DNA of 61,188 nucleotides from Patescibacteria group bacterium (lineage in GTDB: Bacteria; Patescibacteriota; Minisyncoccia; Phycocordibacterales; SBAW01), in contig JACOWS010000006.1 in the NCBI GenBank assembly GCA_016176685.1, positions 1 to 61,188 of the forward strand, in the 5' to 3' direction. Position numbers and translations under genes: made by a program. The notes under the pieces were generated by a model, which had not been told where the DNA came from, did not search any database, and saw only the letters and a list, made by a program, of their open reading frames with translations. Shown in pieces: positions 24,013 through 41,962 of the stretch. Position 1 is the stretch's first letter; each line of letters opens with the position of its first letter.

Positions 24013-24084
24013 CGGGCCCACTCCGACTCGAACGGAGAACTCTTCTTTTGGAGAGAAGTGTTTTACCATTGAAACTATAGGCCC
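24013..24084 (-). tRNA. trnW: tRNA-Trp(CCA)
   Basis: GGGCCTA/TGGGCCC acceptor; loop CTCCAAA; CGTTCGAGTCG T-arm. Confidence 0.93.
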
Positions 24085-24740
24085 TTTTGCAGAAAAGCTC
24101 TTGCTATGGCATGTACTTGTCGAGCAATCCTTACATCATAGTACCGTACACTGGCGCACCCTGCATACCCCTTCCGTACATTGCGCCCGCCGTTCTGTTT
24201 TTGATACGGCTTGGTAAACTGCTCAAGTGGGATAGTGGTAACCTCCGACCAAAAAATCAGTTGTTTTTTAGGATTATGATAGTGGTGCAAGTGTATGCAA
24301 ACTCTGAACTTCTTCTCATCTATTGCATACCCTTTCCTGAGATTTCTCAAAAAAGTTTTTACCAACGTCGGGTCTGAATTAGTGAAGATAAGGGATTTGT
24401 CATTTTTTGATTTTTCTCCTTCACACCAGTAGAGCAATGCGCAAATTAGCCTAGCTTGATCGATGCTGTAGGAAATATTTCCGAGCACTTCTTTGGCAAA
24501 GGTATTAGCTTGCTCTAGGTTACGTCTTGTCTGACTCTGATGAGTAAGTGCCGACTTTTCATTGGCTTGCTTACGTTTGACAAGGATTGAGTTACGAGCT
24601 TTTAAAGACAGCTCGATACCGCGCGCCCAATTAGAAGCAGATGACTTTGAGACCCTGAGAATGCCACTAATCTCACTTAATGAGTGCCCTTCCCGGCGCA
24701 ATCGGCGTGCCTTCTCCCTTTCTAAACTTTTAACCCTCAT
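24075..24740 (-). CDS. HTH + LAGLIDADG-like putative endonuclease
   Basis: N-terminal HTH (LRREGHSLSEISGILRVSKSSASNW); LYWCEGEK...FTNSDP LAGLIDADG-like helix; the stop codon lies inside tRNA-Trp. Confidence 0.75.
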   Translation of the reverse strand: MRVKSLEREKARRLRREGHSLSEISGILRVSKSSASNWARGIELSLKARNSILVKRKQANEKSALTHQSQTRRNLEQANTFAKEVLGNISYSIDQARLICALLYWCEGEKSKNDKSLIFTNSDPTLVKTFLRNLRKGYAIDEKKFRVCIHLHHYHNPKKQLIFWSEVTTIPLEQFTKPYQKQNGGRNVRKGYAGCASVRYYDVRIARQVHAIARAFLQKGL

Positions 24741-24788: not shown

Positions 24789-24947
24789 CTACTTCTTGGC
24801 CTCTTTGTGGATGGTCCCCGCCCGGCACCACTTGCAGTACTTTTTAAGCTCTATTTTGCGCTCCACCAGCTTCTTGTTTTTGGAGCTCCAATAGTTAATG
24901 CGCTTGCACTTCTGGCATTGCAGTTTGATGAGTCTATCTTGTGACAT
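24789..24947 (-). CDS. rpmG: 50S ribosomal protein L33 (Zn-binding type)
   Basis: Manual translation MSQDRLIKLQCQKCKRINYWSSKNKKLVERKIELKKYCKWCRAGTIHKEAKK; absent from the ORF track (52 aa). Confidence 0.93.
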   Translation of the reverse strand: MSQDRLIKLQCQKCKRINYWSSKNKKLVERKIELKKYCKWCRAGTIHKEAKK

Positions 24948-25624: not shown

Positions 25625-27064
25625 TTAATTACAATTGCCGTATGCACCCCAAGCGGTAGGACCTTGGGTCTTTAAAATAGTCTGCGCCGCCTGCGTGTTG
25701 CATTGCACATTTAACGCCGCTTGTACGCATTGCCGGTACAATGATGGGTTAATAACGGTTACATTGTGTTTGTTCGCCGAATATTTTCCGGAGAATGCAT
25801 TTGTGCAATTTAGGACTTGGCCCTGGCAGGCAAAACTATTCTGCCAAGAAAGATTGATCTGATACAAACCAACAGATATTGCCTGTCCGGCCGGTGTTTT
25901 ATCGACACGACTGTAGTTGTTAGCGCCACATGCGCTTTCCCCTTGGGCGATACACGACATAAGGGCTGCTTGTGACCCCCAGGTTGATTGCAGACTAGCA
26001 GGAGAGCAGGTACCTACCCCTACCGCAGAAAGGGGCACGCTTATTGCGCCCAACGACGCACCCGTAGGGTCTATACAACTACCGCCTTGCAGCGTATAAC
26101 CCGCAGGACAACTCGCTACGCCTGTTGGATCCACGCACACCCCTTGCATAAAAGTACCGCCAGTTGACGCACAGGGGTCTATATAGGTCGTCGGCGTGTA
26201 GCTTGACAACCCCGGCAGTGTATTCAAGAAATCACCTACGGTTACCGTATAGTCAACGCCGGGGCGTTTCTGCCCCGAATCACACTGCAAATCGTTCCAA
26301 TGCCCGCCAATGTAGAAGTCTTGCTTAACCAAGACGCTCAAGACGGTTTGCACTACCAGCCAGCCGGTAAGCGCGAACAAAAAACCGATAAAGACATTTT
26401 TAAAAATACCTTTGGCCCTTGTTATATTTGTTTTATTAGCGGCAGAGGTAAAGTACAAGATGCCCGCCCAGGCAAACATAATGACCGCGATGGGGATAGA
26501 AAGACCGATTAAAAAGTTGATGATGTTTTGTATGAGCTGGCCCGCATCACACAAGTTGCAGTTGATACCATTACAAGTCACCAAACCGCCTGCGGGGGGG
26601 CCGCTTTGTGATGATCTGTTCAACTGCGGACTATAGATAGGTGTGGGGTTTGGTTGCGTCTCACTAAGTGAGTTGTTGCCGCCTCCGCCAGAAGGTGTTG
26701 GCGGATTTTCCATCAGGTAACCGCTTGAGCCAGGATAGATATAATTATTTTGTGCGGAAGCAACGGTCACTTTTGCAGAGCAGGTAGTTGTCCCTAAAGA
26801 TCCTACAAAGGTGCCGTTGTAGATAGTGGTGGTGTTTGGACTTACGGTCCTAGCGCCGGAGGTAGCAACATTGCCGAGCGTTGAGATGGTTCCACTGGCC
26901 ACATTGACACTATTCCAGACCAGCTGGGTTGAACCGCCCGGAGCTATGGTGCTTGGATTGGCCTTAATGAAACAACTGGGAAAAGAAAGCTCGGCGGCGT
27001 AGACGGGAGCAGAGACAAGCAGAAAAAAAACGCCGCTCATGAGCCACACAAACCATCGGTTCAT
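25625..27064 (-). CDS. secreted Ig-like + VirB2/TrbC-like pilin + Cys repeats + lysozyme/SLT-like fusion protein
   Basis: Signal peptide; Ig-like segment; pilin hairpin (IINFLIGLSIPIAVIMFAWAGILYFTSAAN...AKGIFKNVFIG); C-terminal CIAQGES...SVGLYQIN...AW. Confidence 0.7.
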   Translation of the reverse strand: MNRWFVWLMSGVFFLLVSAPVYAAELSFPSCFIKANPSTIAPGGSTQLVWNSVNVASGTISTLGNVATSGARTVSPNTTTIYNGTFVGSLGTTTCSAKVTVASAQNNYIYPGSSGYLMENPPTPSGGGGNNSLSETQPNPTPIYSPQLNRSSQSGPPAGGLVTCNGINCNLCDAGQLIQNIINFLIGLSIPIAVIMFAWAGILYFTSAANKTNITRAKGIFKNVFIGFLFALTGWLVVQTVLSVLVKQDFYIGGHWNDLQCDSGQKRPGVDYTVTVGDFLNTLPGLSSYTPTTYIDPCASTGGTFMQGVCVDPTGVASCPAGYTLQGGSCIDPTGASLGAISVPLSAVGVGTCSPASLQSTWGSQAALMSCIAQGESACGANNYSRVDKTPAGQAISVGLYQINLSWQNSFACQGQVLNCTNAFSGKYSANKHNVTVINPSLYRQCVQAALNVQCNTQAAQTILKTQGPTAWGAYGNCN

Positions 27065-27127: not shown

Positions 27128-27213
27128 GCGTCGGTGGTAGAGTGGTCAATTACAACAGGCTGTAAACCTGTCGCCTTCGGGCTACGGAGGTTCGAATCCT
27201 CCCCGGCGCACCA
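27128..27213 (+). tRNA. trnY: tRNA-Tyr(GTA)
   Basis: Loop CTGTAAA, long variable arm, GGTTCGAATCC, encoded CCA. Confidence 0.95.
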
Positions 27214-27349
27214 TTTAGGAAATTGCAAGTCAGAGCTCGCCGCCGCGTAGGACGCGGCGGCTGGCGCATAGTGCGGTTTCGGGTCAAAAACAAATTTGAT
27301 TGGAAAAAAGAAAATTCTTTTGGCATTTAGAAACTAATCAAAACAAACT

Positions 27350-27535
27350 ATGAAGTACGTACTTTACGCTAGAAAGTCCACAGAGGAAGATGACCGCCAA
27401 GTATTGAGCATTGAAGCTCAGCTCGCTGAGCTGTCTTTGTATTCCGCCAAAGAAAAATTTGATATTGTCGCCTCCTTTGAGGAGGCGAAAACCGCCAAGG
27501 AGCCCGGAAAACCATCGGCCCGAACCATGTGTTGA
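27350..27535 (+). pseudogene. serine recombinase/resolvase N-terminal fragment
   Basis: YVLYARKSTEEDDRQVLSIEAQ catalytic motif (YxRxS...Q), truncated at 61 aa by a TGA inside a 31-bp repeat. Confidence 0.85.
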
Positions 27536-39130: not shown

Positions 39131-39457
39131 TTAAATCCCGCCGCTGCACACGCCGCCAGGACCTGGTGGAAGGTCGCCGGGGCACAACGAGGCGGGTGCC
39201 CCCGGTAGCGGAAACGTATTTACTATAATCCCCACAATGGCATATGCCGCCACCATTACAAACATCCCCACCAGGCCCCAGAACATATGCTTGCGACCGC
39301 TGTCTATCCCGACGCTCTTGCCGCTTTTGTTAAGATTGAAAAGAAATTCGACTATGCCGAATATAAACACCAAAAGACCCACCGCAAAAAGCAGTAACAA
39401 AAGCGGGTTGATGAGCACGGTCGCTATGTTGTCGACCAAGCTACTTATAGAATCCAT
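39131..39457 (-). CDS. VirB2/TrbC-like pilin
   Basis: LINPLLLLLFAVGLLVFIFGIVEFL...GRKHMFWGLVGMFVMVAAYAIV two-helix pilin pattern. Confidence 0.75.
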   Translation of the reverse strand: MDSISSLVDNIATVLINPLLLLLFAVGLLVFIFGIVEFLFNLNKSGKSVGIDSGRKHMFWGLVGMFVMVAAYAIVGIIVNTFPLPGAPASLCPGDLPPGPGGVCSGGI

Positions 39458-39470
39458 ACGCTCTTAGCTT

Positions 39471-39818
39471 TTACCCGTGCGGGATAGCAGGGACAGTGGG
39501 GACGACATTACTGGGGACGCCAAGCGCACTCTGTAGTAGGGCGATAATCCCCCAAAGAGATACCATGATAAACAGCGCTGCTATGCCGGCGAACATTATC
39601 TTCTTTCCCTTTTCATTACCCTCCTTGCCGGATTTAAATATATACACCAAGAGCCCCCAGAAGAAGACTACCACCGCCGCCCCTATAAGGAGCGGCACCA
39701 GGGCAATAACAATACCGTTTAGCGCCGCTATGAGGTTGCGTATCGGGATGAGCGATTGGGCCAGAGCCAAAAGCGGCGTAAAGAAAAGCACAGACGAAAA
39801 TAGTGCGGTCTTTTTCAT
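39471..39818 (-). CDS. VirB2/TrbC-like pilin
   Basis: Signal peptide; LVPLLIGAAVVVFFWG...GKKIMFAGIAALFIMVSLWGII. Confidence 0.8.
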   Translation of the reverse strand: MKKTALFSSVLFFTPLLALAQSLIPIRNLIAALNGIVIALVPLLIGAAVVVFFWGLLVYIFKSGKEGNEKGKKIMFAGIAALFIMVSLWGIIALLQSALGVPSNVVPTVPAIPHG

Positions 39819-39902
39819 AGTAAAAAAGTGACAAATAATCTATAGCTGCACTTTTAAGTGTAACAAGCGAGCAGTGGGAGGCAAGCACCTAGTGTGGATA
39901 GG

Positions 39903-40205
39903 CTAGTAAATCGCGGGGAAGGTGCTGGTTTGACTCGCCGGCGCGGCTTGGTCAAGCAAAGAGGAGGTAAAAAAGCGCAGTATCCCCCAGACAGAGACAA
40001 GTACAAACAGCGCTACTATGCCCCATATAAGCATATCTTTGTCTTTGTTTTTGCCCTTGACGCTCTGCGCCCGCATGATAAAACGCACTCCTCCGTAGAG
40101 AAAGAGCACCAGCGCCGCGCCGGATAGTACCGGTATCACCAGGTTGATGAGCCCCACCAAGACCCCTACCAGGTCGCCAAAGTTTTGCGCAGCAGAAAAG
40201 TTCAT
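39903..40205 (-). CDS. VirB2/TrbC-like pilin
   Basis: VIPVLSGAALVLFLYGGVRFI...KDMLIWGIVALFVLVSVWGIL. Confidence 0.78.
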   Translation of the reverse strand: MNFSAAQNFGDLVGVLVGLINLVIPVLSGAALVLFLYGGVRFIMRAQSVKGKNKDKDMLIWGIVALFVLVSVWGILRFFTSSLLDQAAPASQTSTFPAIY

Positions 40206-40208
40206 AGG

Positions 40209-40655
40209 TTAAAAACAAGTGTTAAAGCCGCTGCCGCCCAGCTGCAGGAGCGTGTTGGCCACCACCTGCGCGAGGAACCACGCGCCGACAAACAGCGCGA
40301 TACCGACCATGGTGTAGTAGATATTTTTCTTTGCATTGCCGAGCTTTTTGGGGTTGCCGAGCGCCAGCACAAACTTGAGCCCCGCGATGACCATAAACAC
40401 CACCGCAATGGGTATCCCGAGCGTAAGGGTGACGCTAAACACCGCGTTTAAGAGCTCGCAAAGGGTGGAGCCGTGCGCCAGGGGGTTTTGGAGGGTGAAA
40501 GAATTTGAAGGCTGTTGTACAGTGTTGCTGGTAGGTTGAAAAGGATCGCTAGTCGGCTGTTGCACAGTCACGGCCTGGACACTGATGGGGAGAATAAAAA
40601 ATAATGCGACTGTAACCCCTACCACCTGCCGATGCTTCCAAAAAAAGTATTGCAT
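40209..40655 (-). CDS. VirB2/TrbC-like pilin
   Basis: LQNPL...LGIPIAVVFMVIAGLKFVLALGNPKKLGNAKKNIYYTMVG. Confidence 0.8.
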   Translation of the reverse strand: MQYFFWKHRQVVGVTVALFFILPISVQAVTVQQPTSDPFQPTSNTVQQPSNSFTLQNPLAHGSTLCELLNAVFSVTLTLGIPIAVVFMVIAGLKFVLALGNPKKLGNAKKNIYYTMVGIALFVGAWFLAQVVANTLLQLGGSGFNTCF

Positions 40656-40657
40656 AG

Positions 40658-41962
40658 TTAGTTTGGCAACAGCGCTTCAAACTCTTGAGCCGCCGCGGCA
40701 ACCGCGGCGGCGGGCTCATTTTTGCCGCTTATAACCGATTCTACCATGGTCTGGAATATGCGATTTGTCGCCTTGGGCGATGGGTCGAGCCACCCGCGCG
40801 CCAACAAAGCAGATTGCACAAACACCGCCATGGCCGCGTTGTTTGCGGTGTCGAGCACCACATCGCGCCGCACGGGCGGGAGCCCCGTGAGCGGCGCTAG
40901 AGCCCCGATACCTTTTTTGTCGGTTAGGCGTTGTGCCACGGTGAGCGCTCCTTGGGGATTATGGCTGCTGCGGGGTATAGCCAAGCTAACCAGCCGACCG
41001 TAGGTCGCCTTGACGCCGCCACCCTCTATCTGCGGCAGCACTGCCGCGCTAAAGCGCAAGTTGGGGTTGCGCTCTAAAAGTCCTGGATATTCGCTCGCGT
41101 AGCCAAAGTAGACGGCTACGTCACCCGCGACAAAAGCGTTGTCCGAGCGCGGGAGCGAGCGGTTCCACGAGTAGCTAGTTTTGGATGGGTTGCCAAACTC
41201 GGTGTAAAAGCGCAGGGCCGATTCCGACGGCGTACTTTGTGCGTTTGTCGGACGCCTGCCAAACACCGAGCCGGGTGTGCCGTCCTCGCCGCGTACCACA
41301 ATGCGGTCGCCTGCCTGCATAAACAGCGTGGCCAAAATGTCTTTGGCATGGAAAATATTTTCCCATTGCCCGAGCGCCACGGCGCTCTTTTTTACCGTCG
41401 CCCCCGCGTCAAGCGAGGTTACCTTTGGCGCGAGGTCAAAAAACTCGTTCCAATACTTGGGCGGCAAGGCAACCCCCGCACCGGCAAGCAGGTCGCGGTT
41501 CCAATACATTACCAGGGGGTCGATTATAAACGGCAGTGCCAAGGAGCCGTCCTGGGTTAAAAAGAGTTGCCCCTCGTCTATATACGAGCCGATAAAGCTG
41601 GCCTGCGACACCGCGCCGTAGGGTATGGTGAGCACTTTGTCGGCAAACGCCAACAACTCGTCTTGCGAAAGCATAATAAGGTCCGGGCCGGTGCCCGAGG
41701 CCATGGCGTTAATCAGCTCGGAGTCGTATGTTTCCGGCTTTTTTTGCACGTAGCTGACATTTTGAAACGTCTTGTCCTTTGGCCGCAACTCTCCAAACAC
41801 ACGCTGCAGCACATTGCTGTCTACAGTTCCCCACACCACCACCGAGCCGACCTCTTTCGAGCCGCCGAGGCCGCCGGACACCGCAAACACACCCACCCCC
41901 ACCAAAATAAGGGCGGCAAAAATCCCGAGTACGACTATTTGAAAGGTGGTGAGTTGGTGCAT
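40658..41962 (-). CDS. extracellular solute-binding protein (sugar-binding family 1-like), membrane-anchored
   Basis: N-terminal TM; GTGPDLIM, LPFIIDPLVMYWNRDLL, AFVAGDVAVYFGY. Confidence 0.85.
   Translation of the reverse strand: MHQLTTFQIVVLGIFAALILVGVGVFAVSGGLGGSKEVGSVVVWGTVDSNVLQRVFGELRPKDKTFQNVSYVQKKPETYDSELINAMASGTGPDLIMLSQDELLAFADKVLTIPYGAVSQASFIGSYIDEGQLFLTQDGSLALPFIIDPLVMYWNRDLLAGAGVALPPKYWNEFFDLAPKVTSLDAGATVKKSAVALGQWENIFHAKDILATLFMQAGDRIVVRGEDGTPGSVFGRRPTNAQSTPSESALRFYTEFGNPSKTSYSWNRSLPRSDNAFVAGDVAVYFGYASEYPGLLERNPNLRFSAAVLPQIEGGGVKATYGRLVSLAIPRSSHNPQGALTVAQRLTDKKGIGALAPLTGLPPVRRDVVLDTANNAAMAVFVQSALLARGWLDPSPKATNRIFQTMVESVISGKNEPAAAVAAAAQEFEALLPN

Follow-up and report, generated by a model that had tools for sequence, protein, structure and literature searches.

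The question raised by the locus described here is how an ultra-small bacterium might get through a cell wall. A large part of bacterial diversity belongs to the Patescibacteria, and the members that have been studied live attached to other cells. The locus lies in a 61,188-nucleotide stretch of DNA from a groundwater bacterium of this group (GenBank assembly GCA_016176685.1, contig JACOWS010000006.1, positions 1 to 61,188), the whole of which is referred to here as the window. One open reading frame (ORF) of the window encodes a protein (P0001) in which a pilin module of the type IV secretion system (T4SS) is joined to a lysozyme-like domain. Such a wall-hydrolase-type domain is often built into a pilin-type protein; in one clade the fusion gene occupies a fixed chromosomal slot, in which head and neighbouring gene are swapped jointly. 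The cassette behaviour and the one-to-one pairing of enzyme and partner are the new and most interesting part of these findings, which lead to testable hypotheses for the crossing of walls, own or host, and for what may set host range. The domain identities, the fold, the conserved Glu, the outside topology, the cassette boundary and the co-variation of enzyme and partner are in silico results.

A T4SS with VirB2-like pilins proved essential in the one species of Patescibacteria tested, and the function of this T4SS has been described as completely unknown (PMC11665869, PMC10633639). A survey of Patescibacteria T4SS that used the Pfam family PF18895 described arrays of pilin genes; it also noted that most genomes with VirB2 are without VirB1, and that other glycosidases might substitute (PMC12102498). 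The source genome of the window (550 kb, about 98% complete, seven contigs) is a typical candidate phyla radiation assembly. The locus is found in groundwater metagenomes, and its closest relatives are in Candidatus Adlerbacteria and other Paceibacteria metagenome-assembled genomes (MAGs).

A pilin hairpin with two predicted ectodomains

An earlier note on this DNA, made from the letters alone, had placed the ORF at positions 25625-27064 and had described a signal peptide, an immunoglobulin (Ig)-like domain, a Pro/Gly/Ser linker, a VirB2/TrbC-like hairpin and two Cys-rich repeats. The placement is exact (minus strand, 479 amino acids), and each of these elements was recovered (Table 1). Hydropathy peaks at residues 5-23, 185-203 and 220-238, the first followed by VYA/AE. 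AlphaFold2 (AF2) modelled residues 30-101 as a beta-sandwich with a predicted local distance difference test score (pLDDT) of ~90, all Foldseek matches to this part are Ig/PKD domains, and C31 and C95 are nearly invariant in an alignment of 22 homologues. Residues 105-168 are of low complexity and predicted to be disordered (pLDDT <50). The Cys-rich repeats, C298..C310 and C319..C330, were modelled as beta-hairpins (pLDDT ~80) and gave a weak cEGF match in the Pfam scan (E 0.015).

The hairpin matches PF18895 (T4SS_pilin) at residues 176-240 with 30.3 bits, above the curated cut-off of 26.6, and also matches, more weakly, TrbC (PF04956, E 5.7e-4, below the TrbC cut-off) and a Mycoplasma integrative and conjugative element (ICE) pilin-like model. 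Its two helices span residues 171-206 and 211-245 in the AF2 model. C164-x4-C169-x2-C172 before helix 1 and W256 after helix 2 are invariant among the 22 homologues, and C261 is nearly so. A leader, two hydrophobic helices and a short basic loop, the plan expected of VirB2/TrbC pilins, are thus all present by hydropathy, model and loop charge.

The loop between the helices (residues 206-219) contains three basic and no acidic residues (+3), and all 18 Cys of the protein are inside the two large domains. Both ends of the protein are predicted to be outside the membrane and the inter-helix loop in the cytoplasm. Given the charge of the loop, the order of signal peptide, hairpin and ectodomain, and the position of the Cys residues, the enzyme domain is predicted to be outside, as the earlier note's reading of a wall-cutting enzyme would need it to be.

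The lysozyme-like domain and its predicted catalytic residues

The nearest homologues of the fusion protein carry non-homologous C-termini, which explains why a full-length AF2 model built on the mixed alignment was poor at the C-terminus (pLDDT <50). A domain-only alignment of 16 sequences was used instead and gave a confident model of residues 346-479 (pLDDT 86.7, predicted template-modelling score 0.81). The 47 Foldseek matches in the PDB consist entirely of lysozymes, alpha-lactalbumins and lytic transglycosylases. C-type lysozymes and alpha-lactalbumins occupy the top ~27 places (template-modelling score, TM, 0.46-0.56; probability up to 0.99), with a best E of 0.036 and a root-mean-square deviation of 5-8 A for the C-type lysozymes; lytic transglycosylases and g-type lysozymes rank lower (TM <0.33). 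Structural matches in a viral library are mostly phage SLT/GEWL-type lysins (TMq 0.40-0.48), a fit about equal to that of the C-type lysozymes.

Sequence comparison points to the same superfamily. The three best matches of the domain profile to PDB sequences are C-type lysozymes (E 0.004-0.02), in alignments that span the CIAxxES...GLYQIN core and the C-terminal C..AW..C helix. By hhalign, the domain family aligned over the catalytic core only with hen and human lysozyme (E 0.005, probability 7%) and with SLT-type sister proteins (E 0.001, probability 18%). Sequence alone would not place the domain at a particular point within the lysozyme superfamily. The nearest Pfam family is SLT_3 (PF18896, 'Lysozyme like domain'), on which the full protein scores 15.6 bits and the isolated domain 19.8 bits (cut-off 27); 11 of the 16 subfamily members match it, and the homologues at loci L069, L079 and L080 are above the cut-off. 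The domain of the window therefore appears, from its sequence, to be a divergent and more Cys-rich branch related to SLT_3, with eight conserved Cys. It did not reach Pfam SLT (PF01464; 14.7 bits, cut-off 21.3), and in the alignment it lacks the AYNxG motif of the SLT-type sisters, although ES and GLYQ are present. Pfam Lys (PF00062) was touched by only one of the 16 subfamily members (E 0.018).

The earlier note had recognized an E-S plus GxxQ(I) pattern. E376, G399 and Q402 are invariant in both the 22- and the 16-sequence alignments, and they match the superfamily signature of a Glu on the central helix and a Gly/Gln beta-hairpin (PMC2976769). Twelve residues are invariant in the 16-sequence alignment: seven Cys together with E376, G399, Q402, N404 and L442; the eighth Cys of the domain, C379, is kept in at least 90%. 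Among 136 cluster representatives of the wider family, E376 and N404 are invariant, and G399 and Q402 are kept in at least 90%. The position of hen lysozyme Asp52 is taken by Ser397, which is nearly invariant in the subfamily, so the Glu35 and Asp52 pair of GH22 is absent. GH23 enzymes have no defined second carboxylate, and GH23/lytic transglycosylases act through a single Glu (PMC2976769). Because the superfamily Glu and the Gly/Gln hairpin are present and the position of the second carboxylate is a Ser, the catalytic set is GH23-like. The domain is predicted to be a lysozyme-superfamily glycosidase with this catalytic set and with a compact fold whose model is closest in the PDB to C-type lysozymes; it is assigned neither to GH22 nor to canonical SLT. 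Hydrolysis and the formation of anhydro-muropeptides would not be separable from such data. The membrane-tethered lysozyme-like enzyme of the earlier note, for which an AlphaFold model had been proposed as a check, thus agrees with sequence and structure prediction, catalysis being probable from the conserved residues. Two of the findings that the note had named as refuting it, a C-terminal domain without a lysozyme-like fold and one predicted to be cytoplasmic, were looked for in silico and did not occur.

Exchange of the head together with the downstream gene

The closest homologue of the fusion protein, P0002 from an Adlerbacteria MAG, is encoded in the same gene order: clpB, tRNA-Tyr, the fusion gene, a small gene, rpmG, miaA, OMP decarboxylase and parB. 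P0001 and P0002 are 93% identical in amino acids over residues 1-250 and are then unrelated except for IAQxES; P0002 ends in a canonical SLT domain. Nucleotide identity between the two loci is 100% between tRNA-Tyr and the start codon, stands at 85-90% for codons 1-255, falls to 59% over codons 256-300 and to 50% over codons 301-345, and reaches chance level (~40%) over codons 346-479 and throughout the downstream gene. It rises again above 80% in the rpmG region. The downstream proteins of the window (202 amino acids) and of the sister locus (239 amino acids) share no similarity. The ectodomain after the second transmembrane helix (TM2) and the downstream gene are therefore swapped together between close relatives.

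The ClpB...rpmG-miaA slot of the fusion gene is conserved, and a homologue of its N-terminal part was found in 23 of 24 genomes of the genus. Within this one genus the conserved N-terminal part carries non-homologous heads (SLT, SLT_3-like, CHAP-like and unassigned), which is the arrangement of a polymorphic module. Two other explanations were rejected. An assembly chimera at the domain boundary was ruled out by contigs from four groundwater samples that span the boundary without mismatch, so the mosaic gene is real. A phage lysis cassette, with a holin-like hairpin and an endolysin, was ruled out by zero PHROGs matches and by the chromosomal synteny kept in many genomes.

One partner family for each class of head

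The partner gene of the window, a member of a family termed d202, encodes an N-terminal transmembrane anchor, a Gly/Thr/Pro linker and an ectodomain of ~125 amino acids with two conserved Cys and an invariant KNLGFSFC. Its product shares 44% identity (E 1e-46) with that of the gene next downstream of P0010, a distant fusion that has this lysozyme type and occupies the same slot of the chromosome. When species-representative genomes were scanned with the d202 alignment, 44 loci were found, 42 of them with upstream DNA. At 38 of the 42, the co-directional ORF directly upstream matches both the pilin hidden Markov model (HMM) and the lysozyme-type HMM built here; of the other four, two match the pilin HMM only, one matches the lysozyme HMM only (a contig end cuts the ORF) and one matches neither. 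An SLT-type HMM matched the upstream ORF at none of the 42 loci.

Downstream of SLT-type fusions in this slot lies another family, d239, whose members are 40-49% identical to each other (E 1e-52 to 1e-77). Twenty loci of the genus were classified by head, and 17 show head-partner pairs, 16 of them independent since one sequence was fetched twice. An SLT head is followed by d239 at five loci, one sequence being counted twice. Heads of SLT_3 or of the type in the window are followed by d202 at eight loci (SLT_3 above the cut-off in three). CHAP/NlpC-P60-like heads, assigned from weak Pfam matches, are followed by a gene of a third family, d145 (~145 amino acids), at four loci, three with weak CHAP and one with an unassigned head. 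There was no cross-pairing of head class and partner family among the 17 loci. All three families have the plan of N-terminal transmembrane anchor, low-complexity linker and small Cys-containing ectodomain, and the three ectodomains are mutually unrelated; one of three d239 proteins gave a faint FG-GAP_3 match. The families d202, d239 and d145 are uncharacterised, and each is a candidate inhibitor specific to one of three peptidoglycan hydrolase classes.

Two MAGs of Kaiserbacteria and Moraniibacteria (L060 and L061) show further arrangements. L060 contains two tandem pairs of pilin fusion and d202. In L061 four further pilin genes come after the fusion-d202 pair, a physical link between the cassette and a pilin array.

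Distribution of the fusion and T4SS genes elsewhere in the genome

The earlier note had suggested that the distribution of the protein be examined. A word-indexed search with residues 345-479 returned three proteins; an exhaustive HMMER search returned a widespread family of 331 clusters at 50% identity, in which the lysozyme-like domain is almost always C-terminal in proteins of 280-550 amino acids. T4SS_pilin is present in 100 of 136 domain representatives, so that fusion to a pilin is the rule for this domain, and SLT_3 is present in 59 of the 136 at E <= 1e-3. In a first homologue search PF18895 was also found combined with SLT (PF01464), SLT_3 or CHAP. Across the wider class, the distribution of this lysozyme type is patchy (16 of 301 genomes), and it is always single-copy. 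The fusion is visible in the domain annotation of databases. A pilin-enzyme fusion is not described in the Patescibacteria T4SS survey, nor in the transposon-sequencing (Tn-seq) study and the two reviews searched, all three of which do refer to essential pilins, and PF18896 has no mention in the indexed literature. The family is thus widespread yet undescribed in the searchable literature. The wide occurrence of the architecture, the Ser at the Asp52 position and the pairing with the downstream gene go beyond what the earlier note had described.

The lysozyme-like domain is single-copy in the source genome. The only other lysozyme-like candidate is a 152-amino-acid ORF (C6:46391-46579, minus strand; L012) whose SLT score stays below the threshold (19.1 bits, E 3e-4). 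Contig 4 carries a T4SS-like cluster (C4:110000-127000; L011) that encodes a pilin of 304 amino acids (PF18895, 31 bits), a 601-amino-acid VirB4-like ATPase, a 749-amino-acid TrbL/VirB6-like protein and several unannotated proteins; the ATPase was identified by P-loop_TraG/AAA_10 and was missed by a search with PF03135. Within the window, four tandem small-pilin genes at 39131-40655 (minus strand; 108, 115, 100 and 148 amino acids, all T4SS_pilin) adjoin a solute-binding protein gene (40658-41962) rather than T4SS genes. This array is of the kind reported for Patescibacteria, and its four genes are candidates for the major pilus subunits.

Discussion

The reading developed here, which taken as a whole has about an even chance of being right, is that the fusion protein is a pilin-tethered, wall-cutting head of the T4SS with a cognate, class-specific partner, and that heads are swapped to suit foreign walls. 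Four elements of it are inferred from the results above: an active enzyme, its entry into a pilus, the wall that it attacks and inhibition by the partner. The fusion protein would be exported by the Sec system, and its VirB2-type hairpin would display two ectodomains at the outer membrane surface of the cell, beyond the lipid bilayer that the hairpin spans: the N-terminal Ig-like domain, and a disulfide-rich stalk tipped by a single-Glu (Glu376) glycosidase. It may serve as the peptidoglycan-cutting head of the Patescibacteria T4SS/pilus apparatus, joined physically to the pilin module, and would then supply the VirB1-type activity reported mostly missing from Patescibacteria genomes. The d202 partner would be a class-specific binder, most likely an inhibitor that guards the wall of the cell itself from the tethered enzyme. 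Swapping of heads would adapt the cutting head to foreign walls, of a host or a competitor. The polymorphism of the cassette is consistent with such an outward-directed role and is no proof of it. In VirB2-type pilins both termini face outward from the filament, and fused domains could therefore decorate the pilus.

Several observations weigh against this reading. A head of ~140 amino acids and an Ig-like domain of ~75 amino acids would crowd a filament, so the fusion protein could be at best a minor, tip or base subunit. The gene is not encoded with virB4 or virB6; its neighbours are tRNAs, rpmG, miaA and clpB, no T4SS gene lies closer than about 10 kb, and surroundings of this kind fit a housekeeping wall enzyme equally well. 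The Ser at the Asp52 position excludes the retaining mechanism of C-type lysozymes, so that any activity would have to come from a GH23-like mechanism with a single Glu. Five SLT-type fusions, and a few with unassigned heads, are without a recognizable partner, and the partner is therefore not always required. Shared vertical descent of the gene pairs could partly explain the co-variation. The d202 ectodomain gave no Pfam, PDB (best E ~1) or PHROGs match and, by profile comparison with Pfam and PDB, no similarity to known lysozyme inhibitors. This genome contains no orphan d202, d239 or d145 genes, and a search for co-transcription found no RNA run that contains the locus.

A more specific version is tentative and, on balance, doubtful: the pilin would be the delivery vehicle of a polymorphic effector-immunity system, in which heads of the SLT, SLT_3/C-type-like and CHAP-like kinds would be swapped by recombination, each along with its cognate membrane-anchored inhibitor, at the conserved TM2 end (W..C motif). 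CdiA-CT/CdiI, Rhs and LXG polymorphic toxins and the X-Tfe/X-Tfi pairs of Xanthomonadales are effector-immunity modules. Like the fusion, such modules have a conserved N-terminal delivery part, a variable wall-degrading head and a small downstream gene that changes with the head. They differ in that no orphan cassettes are present in this genome, in that the delivery module here would be a pilin, which to our knowledge has not been described for polymorphic effector-immunity systems, and in that neutralisation by the partner is putative. If a delivery pilin is the correct explanation, the exchange of heads would adjust the range of host or competitor walls open to the epibiont, and the 'missing VirB1' of the essential Patescibacteria T4SS would be accounted for.

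The main rival, itself unlikely, is that the fusion protein is a self-directed analogue of VirB1, which would open the cell's own peptidoglycan for assembly of the T4SS or pilus, in the way of PrgK, TraG (pIP501) and CwlT in Gram-positive conjugation; the partner would then be a class-specific regulator or scaffold and not an immunity protein. The domain logic is that of the membrane-anchored T4SS hydrolases of Gram-positive bacteria, which mix SLT and CHAP domains (PMC12102498, PMC12857230). The single copy of the gene, its presence in 23 of the 24 genus genomes, its stable housekeeping neighbourhood and the partnerless SLT-type fusions would all suit a self-directed enzyme. However, a cell's own wall is presumably constant, which poorly explains why one glycosidase is replaced by another glycosidase or by a peptidase-like domain. 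Nor does self-directed cutting readily explain why head and partner are exchanged simultaneously between genomes whose flanks are 85-100% identical.

It is improbable that the fusion protein is a general autolysin with no role in the T4SS, in which the hairpin would be an anchor that only resembles VirB2, the enzyme would act in wall growth or division, and the partner would regulate it. The distance to T4SS genes and the presence of parB, clpB and miaA nearby would fit this explanation, as would a T4SS_pilin score that exceeds its cut-off only modestly. However, the hairpin has family-specific features beyond hydrophobicity (C-x4-C-x2-C, FAWAG and W256..C261) and matches PF18895, TrbC and the Mycoplasma ICE pilin-like model. 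The same module also forms the small-pilin array in the window and sits in the T4SS cluster of contig 4, and in L061 four more pilin genes directly follow the cassette.

That the head has lost its hydrolase activity and only binds peptidoglycan or another polysaccharide on the host, beside the Ig-like domain, is very improbable: Ser397 at the nucleophile position of hen lysozyme and the alpha-lactalbumins (inactive relatives of lysozyme) among the structural matches would fit an adhesin, whereas the general-acid Glu is invariant in the 136 representatives, the Gly/Gln hairpin signature shows no variation among the 22 or the 16 aligned sequences and is kept in at least 90% of the 136, GH23/lytic transglycosylases work with a single Glu (PMC2976769), and sister cassettes have canonical SLT above the Pfam cut-off and weak CHAP-like matches.

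The pilin-tethered cutting head favoured here can be set beside several known systems. The VirB2-like pilins described in Patescibacteria (Wang et al. 2023, PMC10633639; Quinonero-Coronel et al. 2025, PMC12102498) have the same hairpin module, are from the same phylum and, as in this genome, occur in arrays. They are small and no enzyme fusion has been reported for them, whereas the fusion protein adds Ig-like and lysozyme-like domains and is encoded away from virB4. VirB1, PrgK of pCF10, TraG of pIP501 and CwlT of ICEBs1 likewise have an extracytoplasmic lysozyme/SLT-type domain, tethered to a monoderm membrane where a T4SS is present, and the sister cassettes share CHAP-like domains with the Gram-positive T4SS hydrolases. 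Unlike PrgK, TraG and CwlT, the fusion protein is anchored by a pilin hairpin and not by a simple transmembrane helix, and its gene is outside the T4SS cluster, has a downstream partner and undergoes cassette exchange.

Among enzyme families, SLT_3 is the nearest in sequence; d202-linked relatives exceed its cut-off, whereas the domain of the window is below it. The GH22 C-type lysozymes (hen egg-white, insect digestive) share the CIAxxES...GLYQIN core, the C..AW..C helix and a Cys five residues before the Glu, equivalent to C30. They give the best PDB matches to the model (TM ~0.5), and phage SLT/GEWL models fit it about equally well. The domain differs from them in the Ser at Asp52, in having no Pfam Lys match of its own and weak profile similarity, and in being bacterial and fused to a pilin. 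GH23/family 1 lytic transglycosylases (PF01464) share E-S, G-L-x-Q and the single catalytic Glu, and true SLT domains are found in sister cassettes, whereas the domain is below the PF01464 cut-off and lacks AYNxG.

Coordinates and neighbouring genes

Table 1. Features of the fusion gene and its partner, with positions in the window
Feature	Positions	Strand	Basis
Whole ORF, pilin-lysozyme fusion P0001, 479 amino acids	25625..27064	-	ORF call
Signal peptide, residues 1-23, hydrophobic core 5-23, VYA/AE	26996..27064	-	Hydropathy and sequence; predicted cleavage site
Ig/PKD-like beta-sandwich, residues 28-104, conserved C31 and C95	26753..26983	-	AF2, Foldseek, conservation
Pro/Gly/Ser/Asn-rich disordered linker, residues 105-159	26588..26752	-	pLDDT <50; low conservation, variable length
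VirB2-type pilin module, residues 160-262: C164-x4-C169-x2-C172, TM1, loop 206-219, TM2, W256, C261	26279..26587	-	Pfam, AF2, conservation, loop charge
Spacer, residues 263-293, start of variable cassette	26186..26278	-	Nucleotide identity to sister falls from ~85-90% to ~59%
Two Cys-rich beta-hairpin repeats C298..C310 and C319..C330 (stalk)	26057..26185	-	pLDDT ~80, short strands
Lysozyme-superfamily catalytic domain (predicted), residues 346-479	25628..26029	-	AF2, Foldseek, profile against PDB, Pfam SLT_3 below cut-off
Codon of Glu376, predicted general-acid catalyst, CIAQGES motif	25937..25939	-	Invariance; aligns with Glu35 of C-type lysozymes
Beta-hairpin signature S397-V-G399-L-Y-Q402-I-N404; Ser397 at the hen lysozyme Asp52 position	25853..25876	-	Alignments; signature per PMC2976769
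Partner gene d202, 202 amino acids	24990..25598	-	26 nucleotides downstream of the fusion ORF, co-directional

The neighbours of the fusion gene are tRNA-Tyr, a decayed serine-recombinase islet and clpB on one side, and the 202-amino-acid gene, rpmG, a helix-turn-helix (HTH) gene, tRNA-Trp and miaA on the other. The rpmG gene (24789-24947, minus strand), which encodes L33 of 52 amino acids and falls below the default length of the ORF list, marks the distal end of the cassette. Between rpmG and tRNA-Trp, an HTH protein of 221 amino acids (24075-24740, minus strand) has no Pfam match above the cut-off and no PHROGs match; because the syntenic sister locus (L014) has no counterpart, it is apparently an insertion. 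In that sister locus (L014:7700-8000), tRNA-Tyr is split by an insertion of ~150 nucleotides bordered by a 20-nucleotide direct duplication (CCACTCTACCACCGACGCAT), and the copy in the window (27128-27213) is intact. Contigs from three samples skip 115 nucleotides (27326-27442) inside the serine-recombinase islet that separates tRNA-Tyr from clpB, and the islet is therefore polymorphic in the population.

Parts of the fusion protein also occur in larger proteins. A copy of the Ig-like domain was found with an HMM built here (E 4e-19) in a 714-amino-acid ORF at a contig end (C4:141383-143524, minus strand). Six proteins of 860-1120 amino acids (P0156, P0165, P0169, P0177, P0193 and P0196) also end in this lysozyme-like domain.

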